Assembly (NCBI GenBank): GCA_963741565.1
Contig: CAVUIK010000014.1
Location: 10,550 to 74,549, forward strand
Direction of reading: 5' to 3'
Source: an uncultured Alphaproteobacteria bacterium
GTDB taxonomy: Bacteria; Pseudomonadota; Alphaproteobacteria; Rhizobiales; Hyphomicrobiaceae
DNA length: 64,000 nucleotides
In this document: positions 1 through 10,437 of the stretch, one piece after another
How the letters are laid out: each line of letters opens with the position of its first letter
Numbering within the stretch: the first letter of the stretch is position 1
The notes under the pieces: model-generated
Databases searched by the model: none
What the model was told of the DNA's origin: nothing
What the model saw: only the letters and a program-made list of their open reading frames with translations
Translations under genes and position numbers: made by a program

Positions 1-573
1 GCGGGCAATCTGTACCAGCCAGTCCTGCATCAGCGGCTGCTGAGTTTTGATTAGGAACTTGTGCAGGACCTCGGTGTCTTCGATCTTGCCCCGCTTGATG
101 ACTTGGGCGCTGAACTCATCGTCGAAAATGCGCGATGGCGACGGTGGCGTGAAACCCTTGGCCTCGAGCCAGTGTGCGGTGGCCTTCATCACGCCTTCGG
201 GGTTCACGTCGCGCGGGCAGATGTGTGTGCACTTGTGGCACGACACGCACTGCCAGATGATGTCCTTGTCGCGCAGCAGCTCGCTCTCGTAACCCATGCG
301 GATCAGATAAATCCAGTAACGCGGATTGAACCGTGGCTCGATAGCGTTAATGGTGCACGCGTTTGTGCAACTGCCACACTGGAAGCAGCGATGAATGTCC
401 TCGCCGCCCGGCATTGCCGCGATCTCTTCCTCCATGCGTTCGTTGTAGTCGGTGACGACGCGCGGCTCGATGAAGGTTGACCAGTGCCCCGACACATCGA
501 TGCCATCGATAACGAGGTTGTCGTGGGTTTTCAGGTCTTCTGGTCGGATCAGTGATTTCTCGTGGATTGGCAT
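1..573 (-). CDS. hdrC2: sHdr heterodisulfide-reductase-like subunit C2; N-terminal 191 codons, 3' end lies beyond the left window edge
   Basis: Absent from the ORF track because it stays open to nt 1. My reverse translation from ATG 573-571 reads MPIHEKSLIRPEDLK...IHRCFQCGSCTNACT...IIWQCVSCHKCTHICPRD...QDWLVQIAR with no stop. It has two ferredoxin-type Cys motifs as in HdrC. The ATG overlaps the TGA of the upstream hyp gene (TGATG). Confidence 0.8.
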   Translation of the reverse strand, partial: MPIHEKSLIRPEDLKTHDNLVIDGIDVSGHWSTFIEPRVVTDYNERMEEEIAAMPGGEDIHRCFQCGSCTNACTINAIEPRFNPRYWIYLIRMGYESELLRDKDIIWQCVSCHKCTHICPRDVNPEGVMKATAHWLEAKGFTPPSPSRIFDDEFSAQVIKRGKIEDTEVLHKFLIKTQQPLMQDWLVQIAR

Positions 574-1481
574 CAGCGCGTCGAGGGGAGCAAGTCCCCG
601 CCTCCCAGGCTGGCAGTGTCACCGGCAGGATGGGACCACGGCCGCAGGTCGGCGCCGCGGCCGTCGAGCCCTAATATCCGCCGCGTATGCTCCAAGGGAT
701 CGGTGGCTCCCGCGTTGAAGTCGGTCTTCAGATAAGCCCCGCCCTGGGCGTTGATGTAGTCGGCGTAGATCTGCGCGCACAGGAGATCCACGTACCACAA
801 CATGTCGCGGAAAATGCCGGTGTCCGCCAGGAACTGAGACAGCTCTTCGCGAAGCACGAGGAAGGTCTCGTGGGTGTCGGGGACGCCGATGACGATGCGG
901 TCGACATCATCGCTGCCGCTCGCCGTGTCGTGCCATATCTCGCGCAGGACGCCCGTGTTCGCATGCGCGTCCCAGACCCACCGGGTCATCAGCGGATAGT
1001 GTTCAGGGTGGGCCGCATGCAGGATCTCAGCGGCGAGATCGCGGATGAAGCGCGGTGGCAAATGCAAGCGCAAAGCATGGGGAGAGGGGGGCGTGCGCAG
1101 GGTGCCCTCGAATGCCGCCACGCGGGCGTCCGCAGTTCCGGGGACATGCGCGTCGTGGAGTAGCGTGACGATGGCGGCGCGCACCTGCGGCCAACCCTGC
1201 TGTGCGATCAAGCTGCCGACGCGACGGCGCACGGTTGGCATAAGCGGTAGGATCTCGTCGAATGCTGCGCGTTCCAACTGCCCGGCGCGGCCGTGTCCGA
1301 GCCTATCCTCCATCACCGCAGCCTTGAGCGCTACGGCTTGAGCGAACCGTTCAATGCCACCCACGTTCTCAGCCGCCGCAATCAACGTGCCCAAAGCCGC
1401 GCGCAGCTTTGGTCCGGAGAGATGGAGGGTCGGCCGTGCGACTGTCGCAGCATGGATATCCACCAGGTCACTCCGCCGCAT
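573..1481 (-). CDS. conserved hypothetical protein in the 'hyp' position of sHdr clusters (between hdrA and hdrC2)
   Basis: The ORF is 573..1556. The version starting at ATG 1481 (MRRSDLVDIH...) overlaps the hdrA stop by 14 nt. I recognise no motif; the call rests on synteny only and the start is uncertain. Confidence 0.6.
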   Translation of the reverse strand: MRRSDLVDIHAATVARPTLHLSGPKLRAALGTLIAAAENVGGIERFAQAVALKAAVMEDRLGHGRAGQLERAAFDEILPLMPTVRRRVGSLIAQQGWPQVRAAIVTLLHDAHVPGTADARVAAFEGTLRTPPSPHALRLHLPPRFIRDLAAEILHAAHPEHYPLMTRWVWDAHANTGVLREIWHDTASGSDDVDRIVIGVPDTHETFLVLREELSQFLADTGIFRDMLWYVDLLCAQIYADYINAQGGAYLKTDFNAGATDPLEHTRRILGLDGRGADLRPWSHPAGDTASLGGGDLLPSTR

Positions 1482-2523
1482 GCGCGTGAGCACTGCCGCG
1501 CGCTGCGGCCAAGGCCGAAAGCGCCGCTGCATTCGCCTGCGCAATGCTGTCGTCAATCGTCTCGGGGCCGATTGCCGCGCCGGCGACGAACACGCCGGGG
1601 CGCGATGTGGCGCCCATAATGCCGTAGGAGTCCTTGCGTGCGATGAAGCCGTGCTTGTGCAGCTCGACGCCGAAGACAGCCGACAGCGTCATGTTGTCGA
1701 CGTTGGGATCCATGCCAATTGCGTGCACGACCATGTCAAAGGGGATCGTGATCGGCCGCTTCACGAGGGTATCTTCGCCCTTCACGATCAGCTGGCGGCC
1801 GTCGCTCGTCACTTCGGCGATCCGGGCCTTGATGTACTTGACCTTGAACTCCTCCTGGCTGCGCCAATAGTAATCGGTCTCGTAGTGGCCGTAGGTGCGG
1901 ATATCCATGTAGTAGATGTAGACATGAGCGTCGGGCAGCTCTTCGCGGATCTCCATGGCCATGTTGGCCGACACAGTGCAGCAGATCTTGGAGCACCATT
2001 CGCGACCGATCTGGCGGTCGCGCGAGCCGACGCACAGCAGGATTGCGACGCGCTTCGGTTTTCGCCCGTCGCTAGGGCATCGCACGCCTGCTCCTGTCGA
2101 GATCATCTGCTCGACTTGCGTCGTCGTCACGACGTCGGGATAGGTGCCGAAGCCCCACTCCGGTTTGTTGTTGCTGTCGAAATGCGTGAAGCCGGTGGCA
2201 AGGATAGCAGCGCCGGCCTCGACGGATTGCCCGTTCGACAGAACCACGCGAAAGGCGCCTGGCGCACCATCGAAGGTCTGCACCTTGGTGTTGAGTGAGA
2301 TCGAAATGGCGGGATCAGACTGGACGCGCGCGACCATGCCGCCGATCGCATCCTTGGCCCACAAGCCGGACGGCACCAGCTTCGCGTACCCCGACAGAAT
2401 GGGAGCGCCGCCGATCTGGTCCATCTTTTCTATGAGCATGCTCGGCTGCCCGACTTGCGACAAGGCATGCGCTGCTGCGAGGCCTGCCGGTCCGCCTCCG
2501 ACGATGAGAATGGGTTTGGTCAT
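1468..2523 (-). CDS. hdrA: sHdr subunit A, FAD/FeS flavoprotein (HdrA-like)
   Basis: 351 aa. N-terminal ILIVGGGPAGLAAA dinucleotide fold. CVGSRD...CSKICC cysteine cluster and C-terminal GVFVAGAAIGP motif, typical of HdrA. Confidence 0.85.
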   Translation of the reverse strand: MTKPILIVGGGPAGLAAAHALSQVGQPSMLIEKMDQIGGAPILSGYAKLVPSGLWAKDAIGGMVARVQSDPAISISLNTKVQTFDGAPGAFRVVLSNGQSVEAGAAILATGFTHFDSNNKPEWGFGTYPDVVTTTQVEQMISTGAGVRCPSDGRKPKRVAILLCVGSRDRQIGREWCSKICCTVSANMAMEIREELPDAHVYIYYMDIRTYGHYETDYYWRSQEEFKVKYIKARIAEVTSDGRQLIVKGEDTLVKRPITIPFDMVVHAIGMDPNVDNMTLSAVFGVELHKHGFIARKDSYGIMGATSRPGVFVAGAAIGPETIDDSIAQANAAALSALAAARGSAHAHAAE

Positions 2524-2533
2524 TGTGCTCTAC

Positions 2534-2654
2534 TCCCTCTCCCGATTGTCTGCATTCCAATGGAGAGGGTCGGGGTGAGGGGCGGCAAAGGGCTCCGAGC
2601 AAGCGGCCACCCTAACCCTCTCCCCGCACAAGTGCAGAGTGCGGAGAGAGGGGA
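2534..2654. repeat. two REP-like imperfect hairpins in the hdrB1-hdrA spacer
   Basis: Hairpin 1: CCCTCTCC (2535-2542) pairs with GGAGAGGG (2572-2579). Hairpin 2: CCCTCTCCCCGCA (2616-2628) pairs imperfectly with TGCGGAGAGAGGGG (2640-2653). They resemble the CCCTCTCCCC/GGGGAGAGGG intergenic palindromes common in Rhizobiales genomes. Confidence 0.6.
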
Positions 2655-2656
2655 TA

Positions 2657-4036
2657 TCATTGCGGCGGCGGCGGGATGACTTCCCGTGTCACCGGCTTGA
2701 ACCCGGGTCCGCTGGTCAGCCGAAGACGTGGATCGTAGAGCTGGTCAGGCTTGGTGCCAGACTGGATCTGGCGCAGATAGGCCTCGAACCCGGCCTTGCT
2801 GGTTTGCCAGTCGATGCCAAGTTTCTCGAGTAAGCCTTCGATGGGTGAGGCGTGCCAGTGCGTCTGCACGATCTTGTAGGGATCGGCGCCACACAGCAGC
2901 GCCGCCATCTGGCAGTCTGCCAAGACGGGCAGCGCCACCTCTTTGCCGTCGCCTTGCGCCTTCGAGATCCACTGGTTCTTGTCGAGGGTGGTGATACAGC
3001 CGGTGTCGTGGCCGATCATCACGTCGGCCTTGGCCTCTTCGACAGCGACGCGAATTTTTCGGTCGATGGCGAACGAGCGCGTGAATTCGCGCTCCGAGAT
3101 GATGTGGCGGAATCCAAAGCCGCAGCAGTCGTACCAGGTCTTGTAGTCGATCACCTGGACGCCCATGGCCTGCATCAGGCCCGTGGAGACGGCGACGCGG
3201 TTGCCGTCAAGAACGCTGTCGTCATAGATCGCATCTTCCGGCACCATCTTGTAGACATGGCAAGCGGGATGGATGGTGGCGCGAACCTGCGAGGCGTCGA
3301 TGATCTGATGCTTTGCAATGTCGCCGCGCACGACATGCAACCATTCGGAATAGTGAACGATCTCTTCGGGAATCAGCAGCTTGCCGTCGACCAGACGTCC
3401 GAGCTTGGCCAGGATCTTCTTCACACTCTCGCGCAGCTTCGCGGAGTGGATCAGATACTGGCGGACCTCCTTGTAGTTGCCGAAGCTCGTGCCGCAGTGA
3501 ACCAGCGGGTAGTAGTGTCCTGCGGTGCCGCCGTGCGCTTTCGCCGAAACGTAGGCCTGATGGAAATTGCGAAGGAATACGGCCGCCAGGCTTTCCAGAT
3601 TGCCGATGCCGGAGCCGTGATAGTTCCACGCCGTGCAGCTGGTCTGGTCGGTCTCGTCGAGGTAGTCGGTGCCAAGCTTGTTCTGCAGCCAGAGGAGCGA
3701 GACTGGATAGCCTGGAATGTTGCCGCACTGACCGCAGCTTTTGTGATGCCAGAGCGCGGTGGTCGGGATCTTCTTGTCCCAGCCATAGAGTGTTTTCACG
3801 GTGACGGGTTTGTGCGCGTCGGTGACGCGGTGGACAACGATCTCGCCATCCTTTTCCAGTTGCCACATGGCGTCGCGGACGTCGGCGACGCGATCCTTGT
3901 TGGTCGCCATCGAGCGCCGGTCGATCCGCTGCTCGACCCATTGCGTCGCGAGCTGCGCCTCGGTGGTCGATAAATTGGCTGGCTTCCATTCGGTACCATG
4001 GCCGGTGAAGCGCTCGCCGTTGGTTGTCTCTGTCAT
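2657..4036 (-). CDS. hdrB1: sHdr subunit B1 (CCG-domain protein, HdrB-like)
   Basis: 459 aa with Cys-rich CCG-type motifs (HKSCGQCGN, WYDCCGFGFRH, GHDTGCITT). It sits between hdrC1 and hdrA as in hdrC1B1A-hyp-hdrC2B2 loci. Confidence 0.85.
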   Translation of the reverse strand: MTETTNGERFTGHGTEWKPANLSTTEAQLATQWVEQRIDRRSMATNKDRVADVRDAMWQLEKDGEIVVHRVTDAHKPVTVKTLYGWDKKIPTTALWHHKSCGQCGNIPGYPVSLLWLQNKLGTDYLDETDQTSCTAWNYHGSGIGNLESLAAVFLRNFHQAYVSAKAHGGTAGHYYPLVHCGTSFGNYKEVRQYLIHSAKLRESVKKILAKLGRLVDGKLLIPEEIVHYSEWLHVVRGDIAKHQIIDASQVRATIHPACHVYKMVPEDAIYDDSVLDGNRVAVSTGLMQAMGVQVIDYKTWYDCCGFGFRHIISEREFTRSFAIDRKIRVAVEEAKADVMIGHDTGCITTLDKNQWISKAQGDGKEVALPVLADCQMAALLCGADPYKIVQTHWHASPIEGLLEKLGIDWQTSKAGFEAYLRQIQSGTKPDQLYDPRLRLTSGPGFKPVTREVIPPPPQ

Positions 4037-4040
4037 GCCG

Positions 4041-4547
4041 TCAGCCCTTCTTCTTCGCCGCCTTCTTCGCCGGCGCCGATTCGGTTTGCGCCATCATCGC
4101 GTCGAGCCGCTTCTGCATTTCTTTTGGGGACACGTCCTCAATATGCTGTTGGAGCATCCAGACATGACCGAAAGGATCCTCGATCTGACCGGAACGATCG
4201 CCGTAGAACTCGTCCGTTGGGGGGCGTGTCAATTTCGCGCCGGCGGCGACAGCTTTCTTGATGGCCGCGTCGCAGTCCTTGACCATGATGGCCATCGCGA
4301 ACGTGGTGCCTTTCAATGACTTCGGTCCGAGAACTTTCATCTCGGGGAATTCATCGGATAGCATCACCACACAGCCGTTGATGTCGAGTTCCGCATGCCC
4401 AAGACGGTTGCCCATGGTGAGCCGGAACCGTTCCTTCGCGCCAAACGCCTTCTTATAGAACGCCACGGCATCCGCTGCTCCCTTCACACGCAGATAGGGC
4501 ATCACGGCTTGGTAGCCGGCGGGGACGTTTGATTTCTTGGCTGGCAT
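4041..4547 (-). CDS. VOC/glyoxalase-fold protein (PhnB-like) with a Lys/Ala-rich tail, inserted between hdrC1 and hdrB1
   Basis: The ORF is 4041..4631. ATG 4547 is preceded by GGAGAC, giving 168 aa. The pattern YQAVMPYLRV...LGHAELDING...YGDRSGQIEDPFGHVWML fits the VOC fold. The stop is only 4 nt from the hdrB1 ATG. Confidence 0.7.
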   Translation of the reverse strand: MPAKKSNVPAGYQAVMPYLRVKGAADAVAFYKKAFGAKERFRLTMGNRLGHAELDINGCVVMLSDEFPEMKVLGPKSLKGTTFAMAIMVKDCDAAIKKAVAAGAKLTRPPTDEFYGDRSGQIEDPFGHVWMLQQHIEDVSPKEMQKRLDAMMAQTESAPAKKAAKKKG

Positions 4548-4652
4548 TGGCGTCTCCGTTTCCGTAGGGCGCAATAGGCCAATGGCCGTATTGCGCCGTC
4601 TCTGTGAGGCGGCGGCGTGCTCCCGGTGCAATGCGCCGCCGGCTATTGCACC

Positions 4653-5393
4653 CTACGCATCCTCCTGCTCTTCGAGGAAGTCTTTCCAGTCGTCGCGCTT
4701 TTCCTGCATGATATCGGTGATGACGTCGAACAAGTTTTCGTCGATACCTTCGAGCTGGTCGAGAACACCGGTCATCTCCCAGATCGTATAGAGTTCGACG
4801 GATGTCTTCAGGTTGACCTCCCAAGCGGTCGCCGTCGTATTCAGGGTTGCCATCGGGATCGCTTGGCGCAGCAACTTCAACGGCGCCTCGACCTTCGATA
4901 TATTCGGACCCCAGTCCGCAAATGCCTGAGCGTTGATCATATCGGGGGCCAGCTGGTTGCCGGTCGAGATCAGCTTCAACATGACACGGCTGAACGGGCG
5001 CAGCACGTCCTTGGCGCTTTGCATTTGATGTTTGATCGCGACTTCGCGCATCAGCATCACGAGGCCGCCGGGCGAATTCTTGAATGGGCAGCGGGCGGCG
5101 CATGTGTAGCACTGCGCGCAGGACCAGATTTTCTCCTGCATCGCGTCGTAGATGCCTTCGAGATTTTCGGTCCACAACAGCTGGACGATCTCGCGCGGGG
5201 AAAAGTCGTAATAGTGGGCGGCGGGGCACGTGGCGGTACAGATGCCGCAGTTCAGGCAGCCATTCAGTTCGTGATCGAAGCGCATGTCGTCTTGCAGATC
5301 GCGGAAGATCGCCTCGAGCTTGGCGCGCGGCACGACGGGCGCCTCGGAGATCGGATCGCCAATGAAATCCTGCACGCGCGTATATGCGCTCAT
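4653..5393 (-). CDS. hdrC1: sHdr subunit C1 (2x[4Fe-4S] ferredoxin-like, HdrC-like)
   Basis: 246 aa. Motifs CLNCGICTATCP and CAQCYTCAARCP. Acidic C-terminus. Confidence 0.85.
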   Translation of the reverse strand: MSAYTRVQDFIGDPISEAPVVPRAKLEAIFRDLQDDMRFDHELNGCLNCGICTATCPAAHYYDFSPREIVQLLWTENLEGIYDAMQEKIWSCAQCYTCAARCPFKNSPGGLVMLMREVAIKHQMQSAKDVLRPFSRVMLKLISTGNQLAPDMINAQAFADWGPNISKVEAPLKLLRQAIPMATLNTTATAWEVNLKTSVELYTIWEMTGVLDQLEGIDENLFDVITDIMQEKRDDWKDFLEEQEDA

Positions 5394-5494
5394 GCGGCCC
5401 TCTCAGCCCAGGCTTGGTCGATTTACCGGCGCGAGCGTAGTCATCAGATTGGGGGTGAGCAAGTAGATATTCAAATTATCGAATATTCTGATCT

Positions 5495-6199
5495 TCAGGT
5501 CGATGATGTGATCCAACCCGTCGCGGAAACGAGGCCTGTCATGATGGGTATCAGCGCGTCCTCAATCGATCGAGTGGCTTGCGCGATCGCTTCGAGGGCG
5601 TCGACTGAGTTGGCGGGCGCGTCCTCGGCTTCCATGATGAGATCCTCAATCATGGCGCGCCGGATGCCCGGATGCCCAGCGAAGCCGAAGGCATTGCGGC
5701 CGATTTGGAAGACGGCGGGTCGATCGGCTGCGTCGATGGCCAGAATTGAGGCATAGGCCGGGGGGCACGGCCGGTCCCGCATGTAGACGGCCATCGGAAA
5801 CGCATCCGGCAGGAAGCCGCCGAGAGCGTCGGGCGTCGAGCGCCGCATCATGGCGAGGTCGAGCACCAGTGGGCTTTGCTCGGCAGTGCCCTCGGCCGCG
5901 AGCGAAAGGATCTGCGCGCCGAGGCCGAATGCGACGACAGGTTTGTCCAGCATCAGGCAGGCGCGAGCGAGGCGAACTTCGGCGTCGAGCGTCGGCAGTA
6001 CGTGATCTGGTGTGGCGGCACCCCAAGGTCCGCCTCCGAGCAATATCAGGCCGTCACCCAGCGTTTCGATGCTCGGTAAATTGCCGCCAGGGGTGAACGG
6101 GCGCGCATAGCCGAAGCGAACGCCCCGCCCTTCGAGATGATCCTCGATGGCGCCGAGCCATTCGGACTGCGTGTGCTGGACGACGGAGACGTACTTCAT
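5495..6199 (-). CDS. class-I glutamine-amidotransferase-like protein, apparently lacking the nucleophilic Cys
   Basis: The ORF is 5495..6223 (GTG). ATG 6199 (MKYVSVVQH...) is the alternative start. It has a GATase1-like fold (LILLGGGPWGA, FGFAGHPG). The usual G-x-C-x-G-x-Q elbow reads AFGLGAQ. Confidence 0.6.
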   Translation of the reverse strand: MKYVSVVQHTQSEWLGAIEDHLEGRGVRFGYARPFTPGGNLPSIETLGDGLILLGGGPWGAATPDHVLPTLDAEVRLARACLMLDKPVVAFGLGAQILSLAAEGTAEQSPLVLDLAMMRRSTPDALGGFLPDAFPMAVYMRDRPCPPAYASILAIDAADRPAVFQIGRNAFGFAGHPGIRRAMIEDLIMEAEDAPANSVDALEAIAQATRSIEDALIPIMTGLVSATGWITSST

Positions 6200-6219
6200 G
6201 GGTTGGCTGGTGCGGGCAT

Positions 6220-7509
6220 TCACACGTCCAGTTCTTCGCCGTCGACGTAGGGGGCACCGGGCTTTTCGCGGCCGAGCTGGTGGCGGATCTTGCGCAGGTC
6301 GGATGGCTTGGGCTGGAACGGATAGCTCGCGATGTTCGATGGCGGGCTGTCACCATAGGGCCGATCGCAGGCTGAGAGATCTTCGCGCACTTTGCCGGGA
6401 CAGCCGGATGTCCTGAACGCGAGACCTTGGTCAATGATCGTATCGAGTTCTGAACCTGGAATACCGAAGTCGGTAATGCGGCCGAGGTCGTCGAAGCGCA
6501 TCTGATCGACGCGCACACCTCGGTAGTCGATGAGATAGCGGGCGAGCTGCACACGCCGCCACTGATCGCGCGGGGTCGCTGGCAGATGATCCATCAGCGA
6601 TCCCTTCTCGGGAAAGAAACAGAACATGTGGCTGTGGCCGCCCATATCGACGAGGCGTTGCACCAGATGTAGGGTCTCTGCCTCGGTTTCGCCCATACCG
6701 ACGATCAGATGCGCGCCGAACTTCTCGCGACCAAAAATGTCGCGCGCGTCCTCCAGGATTTCCCAGTATTTGGCCCACGAATGCGGCGACTGCACCCCCT
6801 TGCCACGCGTGCGGTCGAAGATGTCGGGCGTCACGGCATCGAGCGCCACGGTGAAGATGTCGGCACCAAGCTCATGCAGGCGTTTGACGTCGGCGCGCGA
6901 CATGGTGGTGGGGTTGGACAAGATGGATACCGGCACCGTGGCAGGATCGATGCGGTCCGTCCAATGCTTGAGGACGGTAACCGTATCGGCATCCGAGTTG
7001 GGATGCGTAATCATCGAGATGCACATGCGGTGGAATGGTGTCTTGTTGCCGTCGGCCGCCACCTTCTCGACGATTTCGGCCATCGGAACCGCGGGCCAAT
7101 CGACGCGGATGAAGTTGCGGTCGGCATAGTCGCGATCGGCTTCACGGTGACGCGCCAGTCCGCAGTACGCGCAGTTCGCGCGACAACCTTCGGGATAGGT
7201 CAGCAGCAGGTTGAGACAGCGTGTGCACGCGCAGCCGTACATCTTGCCGGGCATCAGGCCGAGTGTAATCGCGGCCGCGGTCGATATCTGCACGTAGTCG
7301 GGCGAGCGCATGTGGGGCGTCAGGCGGTTATTGTTTGGGAGGTAGACGCCTGCAGGCGGCACGTTCGCGTGTTTGACGCGCGCCCCGTTCTTGGCGTCGC
7401 GCGGCGTGACGCCGGGCTGGCGTGGCTGCATCGCGTCGCTCGCGTTGTGGTCGGCGCCGTGCCGTCCGCTGCGCGAGGGGAGCGCCGCTTCTTGCTTCAA
7501 GCACGACAT
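6220..7509 (-). CDS. radical-SAM protein, candidate LipS1/LipS2-type lipoyl synthase
   Basis: 429 aa. ATG 7509 has a GAGGTGA SD. The CX3CX2C motif is CRANCAYC within a BioB/LipA-like core. It is adjacent to a second radical-SAM gene inside an sHdr cluster. Confidence 0.65.
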   Translation of the reverse strand: MSCLKQEAALPSRSGRHGADHNASDAMQPRQPGVTPRDAKNGARVKHANVPPAGVYLPNNNRLTPHMRSPDYVQISTAAAITLGLMPGKMYGCACTRCLNLLLTYPEGCRANCAYCGLARHREADRDYADRNFIRVDWPAVPMAEIVEKVAADGNKTPFHRMCISMITHPNSDADTVTVLKHWTDRIDPATVPVSILSNPTTMSRADVKRLHELGADIFTVALDAVTPDIFDRTRGKGVQSPHSWAKYWEILEDARDIFGREKFGAHLIVGMGETEAETLHLVQRLVDMGGHSHMFCFFPEKGSLMDHLPATPRDQWRRVQLARYLIDYRGVRVDQMRFDDLGRITDFGIPGSELDTIIDQGLAFRTSGCPGKVREDLSACDRPYGDSPPSNIASYPFQPKPSDLRKIRHQLGREKPGAPYVDGEELDV

Positions 7510-7524
7510 CGATCACCTCATACG

Positions 7525-8598
7525 TCAGGCGGCGCAGGACGATTTCGCCCGGTCTTCGAAGGGGCCGCCGACCTTGATCGAGCAGCAGGCGTGCTGCTGC
7601 ACGTAAGGGCGGCCGATTGCATTTGCCAACGCGACGGCACCGTCGGCCGGGAAGGCAATGCCGTCGAGACCCGCCATGACGGCGTAAGCGTCAGTGACGC
7701 GCTTGTGCATGCCAGCCGGCCGCGCGCAACCGAGCAGGACTTGTTTTTCAGGCAACCGGCAGCGCGCTTCGAGAAAGAACCGGCCGATGTCGCCAGTGGC
7801 GGGCGTCACATACGTGCCAGGCCGGGCATAGAACGGCATGACGACGACCAGGACGAGTGAATGGATGCCGTGCCGAGCGCAAATGTCGAGCGCGTTGGCC
7901 TCGCCGAGGATGCGGCCATAATGCAGGCCGATCACGATGTGCGGGACGACCTCCATGCGCGTCGCGCACAGTGCAGCAAGCGTTGCCTCGAAATCGTCGA
8001 CGGAGCGGTCGAGATGATAGACGTCGCGGATCGTCTCGGTGGCGCCGATGACGTCCATCATAGCCGTGTCGACACCGGCGCTTTCCATCTGCCGCGCGCG
8101 CGGCGCGTCGGTCAGCGCCGAATGGATTGCGATCTTGAGGTGCGGGAAGTCGCGCTTCAGGCCTTCGACGACCGGGAGATAACGCTCGTACTTGATTTCG
8201 TTGCGTCGGTTGGAGCCACCCGAGAGGAGAAATCCCTGGAGGTCCTGCAGCAGGATCAGATCGCGGACCTTCCGATCGAGCATCTCGGGTGACGTCGCGG
8301 GGATCATCGGTTCCAGGATCTTGGCCTGGCAGTGGTCGCAGTCGAGCGCGCAGGCGCCAGCCGTTACCGAGAATGCGGGAAACGAATTCTTGGCGCAAGC
8401 CGAGAGCTCGGACGAGCTATAGTCCTTGAAAGTCGGCGTCGAGAAGCGAATCGATGGTAGCGGCGCGCGTTCGGCGCGGGACTGCAGTTCGGCAACGAGT
8501 GCCGGTTCGAATGTGGCGTCTTCCAGTGGTTCAATGGCGGCGATGTGCCGATGCCAGGGCGTCGACCGGTGTGTGCTCAAAGTTGGTTGTGCCGTCAT
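7525..8598 (-). CDS. radical-SAM protein, second member of the LipS-type pair
   Basis: The ORF is 7525..8724. The internal ATG 8598 (MTAQPTLSTH...) forms an ATGA overlap with the soxB stop (8595-8598). The CX3CX2C motif is CALDCDHC. Confidence 0.65.
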   Translation of the reverse strand: MTAQPTLSTHRSTPWHRHIAAIEPLEDATFEPALVAELQSRAERAPLPSIRFSTPTFKDYSSSELSACAKNSFPAFSVTAGACALDCDHCQAKILEPMIPATSPEMLDRKVRDLILLQDLQGFLLSGGSNRRNEIKYERYLPVVEGLKRDFPHLKIAIHSALTDAPRARQMESAGVDTAMMDVIGATETIRDVYHLDRSVDDFEATLAALCATRMEVVPHIVIGLHYGRILGEANALDICARHGIHSLVLVVVMPFYARPGTYVTPATGDIGRFFLEARCRLPEKQVLLGCARPAGMHKRVTDAYAVMAGLDGIAFPADGAVALANAIGRPYVQQHACCSIKVGGPFEDRAKSSCAA

Positions 8599-10311
8599 GC
8601 TCGGCTCCGGACAACTTTCACGGCGGTTGCCGTATTCGATCTGATAACCTGACGCTTCTTGAGATGGTTGCCGACCACGTCCCAGATCGGCGGGCCTTGC
8701 GTCGCCTCGTTCACCGAGGCCCAACCCGCGACGACATAGACTTTGGCCGGATCGATTGGTGTGCCGGTCTTCAAGTGCGTCATCCCCGAAATACGCTGGC
8801 CCATCGGTTTGTCTACGTTGATCGTATAACCCATTCCGGCAACGCGAACCATGTCACCGCCCTGTTGATAGTAGGGATCGGGATTGAAGAGGTTGTCGGC
8901 GACGTCTTCGAGGATCATTTTGATCATCTCGCCGGTCATCGGCGTCCGATAGGTGCTGGGATAGCTGATCGCGGTGGCGTTGTAGACCTCCTCCCAGTGG
9001 ATGGACTGACCGGGCAGGATCGAGGTGCCCCAACGGAAGCCGGGCGAGAAGGAAATCTCGGCATCACGCTCGGCCAGCAGTGCGTCGCCGATCATATCGT
9101 CGAGCGTTCCATTAAAGTTGCCGCGCCGATAGAGCAGCGTCTCGGCGCGGGCCAGCTCGGTCTTGAGCATGGCCTCGTGTGGTGCGCGGACGCTGGCAAT
9201 CAACGCGGCCATCTCCGGGTCCGGGGTGATGGCGTCCGTCAAGACGGGAATCAAAGCATAGCTATGATCGGACATTCGGCCATCGCGCATCTCGATGTCG
9301 AGCCGAGAGAGAAATTTTGTGTGCGAGCCGGAGGCGACAAGCAACGTCTGGCGAACCTTGACGGGGACCGGGAGAGCGTCATGGGTGTGGCCGGTGAGGA
9401 TAATGTCGATGCCATCAACGCGGCCGGCGAGCTTGCGGTCGACGTCAAATCCATTATGCGACAGCAAGACCACGAGTTGCGCGCCACCTGCGCGGGCGGC
9501 CTTCACGCTCTTTCGAATGTCACTCTCACGAATTCCGAACGACCAGTTGGGCATCATCCATCGCGGGTTCGCGATTGGCGTGAACGGGAAGGCTTGGCCG
9601 ATGACGGCGATCTTGATCCCGGCCTTTTCGATCAGCTTGGTAGATTGGAATACCGGCTCGTCGAATTCGGTGTCACGGATATTGTTGGCGAGGAATGTCG
9701 TGCGGAGCTGACCCGGGCGATACTTGTCGCCGAACAGGGCCCGCATGCGCTCGTGACCGAGGGTGAACTCCCAGTGGCCGGTCGTTGCCTCGAAGCCAAG
9801 CGTGTCGAGGACGGCGGCCATATCTGCGCCGCCTGACTTCATGACCGTGTAGGAGCCGTGAAGTGTATCGCCACCATCGAGTAGCAAGGTCCGGTCGGCG
9901 CCGCGCTCGGCCCGGATCGCCTTGATCAGGGTCGCCATACGGTCCATGCCGCCGACGCGGCCATACGTCTTCGCGAGCTCAGAAAAATCGACGTCCGTCA
10001 GTGCGTACTGGAGATGCGAGCCGGGTGCGATGCCGAAGGCTGAGAGATAGTCCGCGCCGGTGATATGCGGCGGGTGGCCGTAGACGTCGCCGACCCCGAG
10101 ATTGACGGACGGCTCGCGGAAGTAATGCGGCATCAGCTGACCATGACAATCCGTCATGTGCAGGATGGTCAGCTGGCCCTTCGAACTCGAAACGCAAGAG
10201 ATCGGCTTGCGTGATGCGCTGCTGCGCCGCCAAACGGGCCACGCCGCCGGTTAACCCAGTGAGCGCACCTGTGGCGATCGCGACCTGCAGAAAATCCCGA
10301 CGGGAAAGCAT
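8595..10311 (-). pseudogene. soxB: soxB (thiosulfohydrolase) split by a 1-nt frameshift between the Tat signal and the catalytic body
   Basis: The frame from 10311 encodes MLSRRDFLQVAIATGALTG...ADLLRFEFEG (twin-arginine signal). A frame offset by 1 nt encodes QLTILHMTDCHGQLMPHYFREPS...DGGDTLHG...GHWEFT... down to 8595. The switch is at the CCC run 10177-10179. It could be a sequencing indel. Confidence 0.8.
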
Positions 10312-10437
10312 CCAGCGCCTTGCTCATTAGTCCAGGATGGACCCGCGACCATCCACAACTCGCAGACACTAGCATATTTGCACAACAGGCAACACGCATC
10401 GGTGTCGCCAACGAGGTGGGGTAGGCGAAGTCATTCG

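Follow-up and report, generated by a model that had tools for sequence, protein, structure and literature searches.

The window (the whole stretch of 64,000 nucleotides that was analyzed) is a part of contig C14 of genome G000 (5.1 Mb, 19 contigs), and the MAGs that carry close relatives of the locus described here are labeled Hyphomicrobiaceae. The ORF list and the raw sequence gave, on the minus strand, the gene order lipS1, lipS2, a GATase-like gene, shdrC1, a VOC-fold gene, shdrB1, shdrA and 'hyp'. The row starts with lipS1 (7525-8724, minus strand; NCBIfam LipS1, 2.4e-52), lipS2 (6220-7509, minus strand; NCBIfam LipS2, 6.6e-56) and, directly upstream of shdrC1, the GATase-like gene (5495-6223, minus strand; NCBIfam glutamine-amidotransferase-like, 4.5e-13). 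NCBIfam and Pfam also placed SoxB upstream of the shdr genes.

The product of shdrC1 (4653..5393, minus strand, 246 aa) matched the Pfam 4Fe-4S dicluster domain and the NCBIfam HdrC-like model and was 92-94% identical to its relatives; the gene ends 105 nt upstream of the VOC ATG. For shdrB1 (2657..4036, minus strand, 459 aa) we found the CCG domain and an HdrB-like match, with an identity to relatives of 83-93%. Next come shdrA (1468..2523, minus strand, 351 aa), with Pyr_redox_2 and HdrA-like matches, and the shdr 'hyp' gene (573..1556, minus strand), whose start codon is uncertain. On the same contig, just beyond the window start, 'hyp' is followed by shdrC2 (G000:C14:10322-11122) and then by shdrB2 (G000:C14:9285-10313).

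Directly downstream of shdrB2 (G000:C14:4488-9221) there are three genes, which we labeled by eye from their translations. The first, a 1005-aa ORF, looks like a molybdopterin oxidoreductase, the second is Cys-rich and looks like a 4Fe-4S subunit, while the third is hydrophobic and looks like a membrane anchor. As read from the translations, the three genes resemble a module of the polysulfide/thiosulfate/tetrathionate-reductase type.

The VOC-fold gene (4041..4547, minus strand) starts with the ATG at 4547, stops with the TGA at 4043-4041 and codes for 168 aa plus stop, including a short Lys/Ala-rich C-terminal tail. A 105-nt spacer (4548..4652, minus strand) separates it from shdrC1 and holds the Shine-Dalgarno-like GGAGAC (4552..4557, minus strand), read from the sequence 4 nt before the VOC ATG (the GGAG is 6 nt before). 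At the other end, the ATG of shdrB1 (4036) is located 4 nt past the VOC stop, and the last three VOC codons, AAG AAG GGC (KKG; 4044..4052, minus strand), double as an SD-like sequence for shdrB1. The original prediction had described both the own SD and the 4-nt distance, and both were found in the sequence. Its placement of a VOC/glyoxalase-fold gene between shdrC1 and shdrB1 was borne out as well, by the ORF, the PF00903 match, the AF2 model and Foldseek for the gene itself and by NCBIfam and Pfam for its neighbors.

In relatives, at loci without an extra inserted gene, the length of the shdrC1-VOC spacer varied from an overlap of 4-8 nt to 105 nt. A scan of positions 400-10400 detected no sigma-70-like promoter and no terminator-like site in this spacer, with the total number of sites in the scan not exceeding that in shuffled sequence. 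The co-transcription of the VOC gene with shdr, as claimed in the original prediction, is very probable, because the genes share a strand, the junction measures 4 nt and the SD of shdrB1 falls within the last VOC codons. The distance from the VOC stop to the shdrB1 start was +4 or -4 nt (+8 in one case) in 13 of 19 loci, with an A/G-rich, SD-like ending of the VOC gene. Since the VOC gene, with its stop and final codons, borders on or runs into the start and the ribosome-binding site of shdrB1, it is predicted to be translationally coupled to shdrB1.

The pairwise dN/dS ratios (NG86) of the VOC gene were in the range from 0.06 to 0.2, in operon and free copies alike, compared to 0.03-0.18 when shdrC1 and shdrB1 were taken from the same pairs of genomes; the dN of the VOC gene was about 3-6 times the dN of shdrC1 and shdrB1. 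Such ratios point to a functional VOC gene under purifying selection. A value of about 1, which the original prediction had named as a sign of a non-conserved ORF, is far from the value of about 0.1 observed.

The VOC protein matched Pfam PF00903 (Glyoxalase) at residues 19-132 with E=4.3e-16 and 59.8 bits (cut-off 20.6). The AlphaFold2 model, with a mean pLDDT of 92.3, has two beta-alpha-beta-beta-beta modules (E18-21 H24-35 E38-45 E48-56 E59-65 and E84-88 H92-101 E105-112 E117-123 E129-135) and a C-terminal helix. When this model was submitted to Foldseek, the best matches were all VOC proteins, with a probability of 1.0 to many VOC structures. By both the PF00903 match and the tandem modules, the protein belongs to the VOC superfamily.

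The nearest solved structures by sequence are TioX (3ITW), At5g48480 (1XY7) and the PhnB-type proteins (5KEF, 3L20, 3OMS, 1U6L); by fold, TnmS1, FosB/FosX and GlxI also came up as near (Foldseek). The family is very large, with 7435 proteins at E<=1e-30, the close ones of which carry the JGI label 'PhnB protein'. Many phyla, among them Acidobacteriota, Myxococcota and Planctomycetota, have homologues at 45-55% identity. Within G000, only two distant VOC matches (E 2e-5 and 7e-4) and no second copy of the gene were found.

Glyoxalase I of E. coli (GloA, 1F9Z) has the same superfamily fold, with a Foldseek TM-score of about 0.59 when normalized by the query and 0.75 when normalized by the target. 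To compare the metal ligands, the VOC family alignment was aligned by hhalign with E. coli GloA (probability 72%); the ligand numbering of the GloA sequence was consistent. In this alignment, the ligands H5, E56, H74 and E122 of E. coli GlxI correspond to M16, L63, A84 and M131 of the VOC protein, while D65 and E66 lie 2-3 residues after L63, the position equivalent to E56. Three canonical glyoxalase-I ligands, and probably all four, are thus missing from the aligned positions, which argues that the VOC protein is not a canonical Ni/Zn glyoxalase I. The metal-dependent chemistry that had been proposed for it loses its footing, with M, A and M at three ligand positions and the fourth aligned to L63. 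The family alignment has 14 invariant columns, with E39, D93 and D124 as the invariant polar residues, and H51, D65, E66, D117 and R118 are near-invariant. A non-canonical metal site may be formed by the conserved H51, D65, E66, D117 and D124.

To see how widespread the insertion is, we scanned 401 genomes of the family Hyphomicrobiaceae with HdrB1 and the VOC protein as queries and compared the contig coordinates of the matches. Among the family genomes, 51 out of 401 were sHdr-positive, and 18 of these 51, from five genera, had the VOC gene directly upstream of shdrB1; the loci inspected by tblastn agreed. The insertion is therefore not a one-off. In 13 of 16 shdr loci without the VOC gene, the gap between shdrC1 and shdrB1 was 6-123 nt, as expected from the earlier statement that the two genes are normally adjacent; the other three loci hold a different insert.

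The closest metagenome homologues (74-82% identity) showed the same pattern: six of the seven contigs examined were arranged as shdrC1-..-VOC-..-shdrB1, and on the seventh the VOC homologue adjoins a GAPDH gene. Among species genomes, the search with the VOC protein gave hdr genes nearby in only one of the best 80 loci, that of the G019 MAG. Therefore, the association of the VOC gene with shdr is confined to the family Hyphomicrobiaceae. No mention of a VOC gene in shdr loci was found in the literature, also when full texts were searched for sHdr combined with glyoxalase, and no described role for such a gene came up, as the original prediction had stated. The synteny comparison that it had called for has come out divided: the insertion is widespread in the family, yet unreported in published descriptions of shdr loci.

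One sHdr-positive genome, G218 (L160, G218:C13:6800-14847), has adjacent shdrC1 and shdrB1 genes with an 11-nt gap, and its VOC gene is located elsewhere. There it directly follows an lplA-looking gene (lipoate-protein ligase), itself preceded by a dapB-looking gene. The lplA and dapB labels were derived from the N-terminal sequence and from the parallel with L120, where the same dapB-lplA neighborhood lies upstream of shdr.

Besides the VOC gene, the junctions C1|B1, B1|A, A|hyp and C2|B2 of the sister loci hold varied cargo. We observed DUF3368 plus a small ORF, AHSA1/SRPBCC, LysE, OsmC, DUF3303, Uma2, a metallophosphatase (Metallophos), Anthrone_oxy, GT87 (on the opposite strand), small membrane ORFs and a small ORF that is DUF1330-like by eye. 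A 137-aa ORF (MPRKSWSEKFADKRP...) without a Pfam match, at L034 1005-1418 and also in L123, L128 and L129, is an immediate neighbor of the VOC gene, on one side or the other, in at least four shdr loci. Of all the cargo genes, the VOC gene has the highest frequency and the widest distribution. So many unrelated genes in the same slots of sister genomes count against the interpretation of the original prediction.

The 133-nt spacer between shdrB1 and shdrA folds into strong hairpins (-62 kcal/mol) and contains a G+C-rich element of about 49 nt (window 2564-2612). A second copy, 88% identical, lies where shdrC2 meets shdrB2 (G000:C14:10267-10315), and there is one more at G000:C13:20995-21037. 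The element may be a small repeat, or cargo turnover may have left it behind as a scar.

Two lineages kept the VOC gene in place after every shdr gene had been lost, which weakens the functional tie to persulfide handling that the original prediction had implied. The first case is the genome G165 (98% complete, no HdrB1 match), which is collinear with the sHdr-positive genome G186 of the same genus at 79-87% nucleotide identity. The order in G186 (L168, G186:C2:2666001-2686000) is dsrE3-shdrC1-VOC-shdrB1-LysE-shdrA-OsmC-hyp-shdrC2-DUF3303-shdrB2-..-146aa-lbpA. At the matching place in G165 (L158, G165:C6:297800-308300) we found VOC-LysE-OsmC-DUF3303-..-146aa, with order and strand as in G186. 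The genes dsrE3, shdrC1, B1, A, hyp, C2, B2 and lbpA are absent, so that this locus is a gene-by-gene 'negative image' of the G186 operon: the four genes kept are exactly the four cargo genes that interleave it.

The second case is the genus of the window, where most genomes are without sHdr, yet the VOC orthologue was kept (57-67% identity). In the sHdr-less genome G009 of this genus, the orthologue has a divergent EamA gene and a gene for thiolase as neighbors, and six further sHdr-less genomes of the genus gave the same EamA-like flank matches. The equivalent site in G000 (C8:352738-358327) reads lbpA-146aa-dsrE3 | EamA | thioesterase-lplA-thiolase. The sulfur-oxidation locus of G000 is thus split, with the shdr core and the VOC gene on C14 and with lbpA, the conserved 146-aa ORF, dsrE3 and the lplA-like ligase gene on C8.

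The free-standing VOC orthologues of sHdr-less genomes of this genus (L008-L019, L166) have low-complexity C-terminal tails rich in Lys, Ala, Pro and Arg, often 50-100 aa long, and reach 263 aa in total. The tails of all operon-embedded copies are short, at roughly 10-25 residues, with the shdrB1 ribosome-binding site at their end.

SoxB was present in 21 of 21 genomes tested, with or without sHdr, and the retention of the VOC gene after the shdr loss is therefore compatible with a role in sulfur oxidation in general. As to the numbers of soxB matches, 11 of the 12 sHdr-negative genomes tested in the window's genus had two or more (G004 had one), and the sHdr-positive G000, G019 and G016 had one match each.

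The HdrB1 tree, which is poorly resolved as HdrB1 is too conserved, forced at least 3 gains or losses, with 7 on the best tree; the VOC tree required at least 7 changes of context. The simplest history would be a capture of the VOC gene into the operon before the genera split, followed by repeated loss of shdr with the VOC gene kept. We infer this direction because the order of the shdr genes is universal.

In the genome G205 (L159, G205:C6:505800-516300), we observed uncompensated 1-nt insertions relative to G186, with 11 in shdrB1, 6 in shdrA and two in dsrE3; none were seen in shdrC1, VOC, LysE and both EamA genes. The shdrB1 and shdrA genes of G205 may be decaying pseudogenes, or the assembly may be faulty at this place; the latter is possible because all 17 changes in the two genes are +1 insertions, and the locus was left out of the argument.

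With moderate confidence, we take the VOC gene to be lineage-specific cargo: it would be transcribed along with shdr and coupled in translation to shdrB1, with a function that does not depend on sHdr. The gene would encode a functional stand-alone protein of the TioX/At5g48480/PhnB-like branch, devoid of the canonical 2-His/2-Glu metal site. An ancestor shared by several Hyphomicrobiaceae genera would have taken the gene up between shdrC1 and shdrB1 of its type I shdr operon, and the gene would now be read from the shdr transcript as a cargo gene, or hitch-hiker, rather than as the gene of an sHdr subunit. By analogy with its relatives, the protein would most likely work without a canonical metal centre, binding or detoxifying a small molecule that is toxic or electrophilic. 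The basic Lys/Ala tail may anchor the protein to DNA or another polyanion.

Within this cargo reading, the selective value of the VOC gene would be independent of sHdr, because two lineages without shdr genes kept the gene at the same site. A core shdr gene should be present in shdr clusters generally, and the VOC gene occurs in the clusters of just 18 of the 51 family genomes. Nor is it co-inherited and co-lost with shdr, judging by G165 and by the genomes of the window's genus, as traced in G009. In Aquifex aeolicus, according to published work, only HdrA, B1, B2, C1 and C2 were co-purified. What speaks against the cargo reading is the position of the gene: throughout five genera it directly precedes shdrB1 or is separated from it by a single gene, an old and stable association more persistent than that of any other cargo gene. 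This persistence could reflect a benefit of co-expression with sHdr.

Such a benefit would be expected if the VOC protein of these Hyphomicrobiaceae truly assisted in sulfur oxidation and were co-expressed with sHdr, an accessory role that we regard as possible though unlikely. The protein would remove or convert a reactive by-product that arises when sulfane sulfur is oxidized in the cytoplasm, such as an electrophile damaging the lipoamide arm of LbpA or a thiol, sulfite or aldehyde adduct, and it may act with other stress-type cargo (OsmC, the LysE exporter). The slot directly upstream of shdrB1, kept in the 18 family genomes and on six metagenome contigs, would fit an accessory, as would the tight coupling to shdrB1 translation, the purifying selection and the presence of stress and export proteins (OsmC, LysE) among the co-resident cargo. 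SoxB is still encoded in all sHdr-less genomes that keep the VOC gene, and the VOC gene of G218 is located beside a lipoate-protein-ligase-like gene. However, two thirds of the shdr loci of the family, as well as the published definition shdrC1B1AHC2B2, lack the VOC gene, while it was kept where every shdr, lbpA and dsrE3 gene is gone. Close VOC homologues are also common in phyla not known as sulfur oxidizers, where, among the best 80 loci, they never adjoin hdr, and the canonical catalytic metal site appears to be missing. If an accessory role were true, it would mean a new protective function tied to cytoplasmic sulfur oxidation. A more specific and doubtful proposal is that VOC, OsmC, LysE and DUF3303 make up a lineage-specific protection module, recruited into the shdr transcript against a specific reactive by-product of cytoplasmic sulfur oxidation, with the VOC protein binding or converting this compound via a non-canonical site formed by H51, D65, E66, D117 and D124; if true, it would be the first role of the VOC fold in dissimilatory sulfur oxidation.

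The gene might also matter as a stretch of translated sequence only, delivering ribosomes to shdrB1 and setting the C1:B1 stoichiometry, with the protein itself dispensable. Such an operon spacer would produce what 13 of 19 loci show: +4/-4-nt junctions and an SD of shdrB1 that falls in the final VOC codons. We consider the spacer reading highly improbable given the strong purifying selection along the whole fold (dN/dS about 0.1; 14 invariant columns), the persistence of the free-standing gene after the loss of shdrB1 and the VOC-less loci, which express shdrB1 from a C1-B1 junction of 6-123 nt. Naturally, high-GC genomes are rich in long spurious ORFs, several of which overlap this region on the plus strand, and the VOC ORF could have been a decaying or spurious frame of the same origin. 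The Pfam match (E=4e-16), the 7435 homologues at E<=1e-30, the confident AF2 fold and the dN/dS of about 0.1 rule this out, leaving it a negligible probability.

Returning to the cargo reading, the VOC gene probably does not encode a missing component of sHdr, and a tempting false lead is thereby removed for sulfur-oxidation research. In several Hyphomicrobiaceae genera, the operon of a multi-subunit enzyme is interleaved with unrelated cargo at almost every junction, an arrangement not found in the sHdr literature searched. The cargo left as a 'negative image' once the pathway was lost makes a clean natural example of operon gene gain and shedding. The locus also calls for caution with guilt-by-association annotation and with HMM or synteny rules that demand a contiguous shdrC1B1AHC2B2. 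While the VOC protein itself is a new member of a known superfamily, the operon arrangement was not found in the literature and is widespread within one family.

Among known proteins with solved structures, TioX (PDB 3ITW) was the best sequence match, with E 1e-9 for the single sequence and 1.5e-15 with the family profile. The two proteins share the paired beta-alpha-beta-beta-beta fold and a C-terminal helix after the core (Foldseek probability 1.0); they differ in that the identity is only about 23-25% and the Lys/Ala-rich tail belongs to the VOC protein. TioX is encoded in the thiocoraline gene cluster, and TnmS1 (5UMQ) is a related antibiotic-binding VOC protein. Antibiotic-sequestering VOC proteins of the BLMA/TioX/TnmS1 type bind a natural-product toxin, and the gene is usually located in or near the biosynthetic cluster of the producer. 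The likeness of our VOC protein to them appears to be one of sequence and modeled fold only, and no natural-product biosynthetic cluster was seen among the genes neighboring the VOC gene.

The likeness to PhnB, as claimed in the original prediction, holds only loosely. The PhnB/COG2764-type proteins (S. aureus SA0856, 5KEF with zinc, and 3L20; B. cereus PhnB, 3OMS; P. aeruginosa PA1353, 1U6L) and E. coli YjdN have motifs in common with the VOC protein, around H51 (..GHAE..), FyGdR and DPFGh.W, and the family-profile search retrieved the PDB chains of PhnB type at E about 1e-13. On the other hand, the score against NCBIfam YjdN (NF007537) was 31.2 bits, below the cut-off of 122, and Pfam PF06983 gave no match at E<=0.01. 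To our knowledge, the function of the PhnB/COG2764-type group is itself unsettled; the literature on PhnB/SA0856 and TioX offered no functional lead for the VOC gene.

The published type I shdr cluster (Hyphomicrobium denitrificans and others) is a contiguous shdrC1B1AHC2B2. Compared to this cluster, the flanking genes of the locus described here are ordinary, with the canonical order and with lipS1, lipS2 and the GATase-like gene upstream. The difference lies in the VOC gene between C1 and B1, present here and in about a third of the loci of the family, and in the additional cargo of relatives, which interrupts B1|A, A|hyp and C2|B2.
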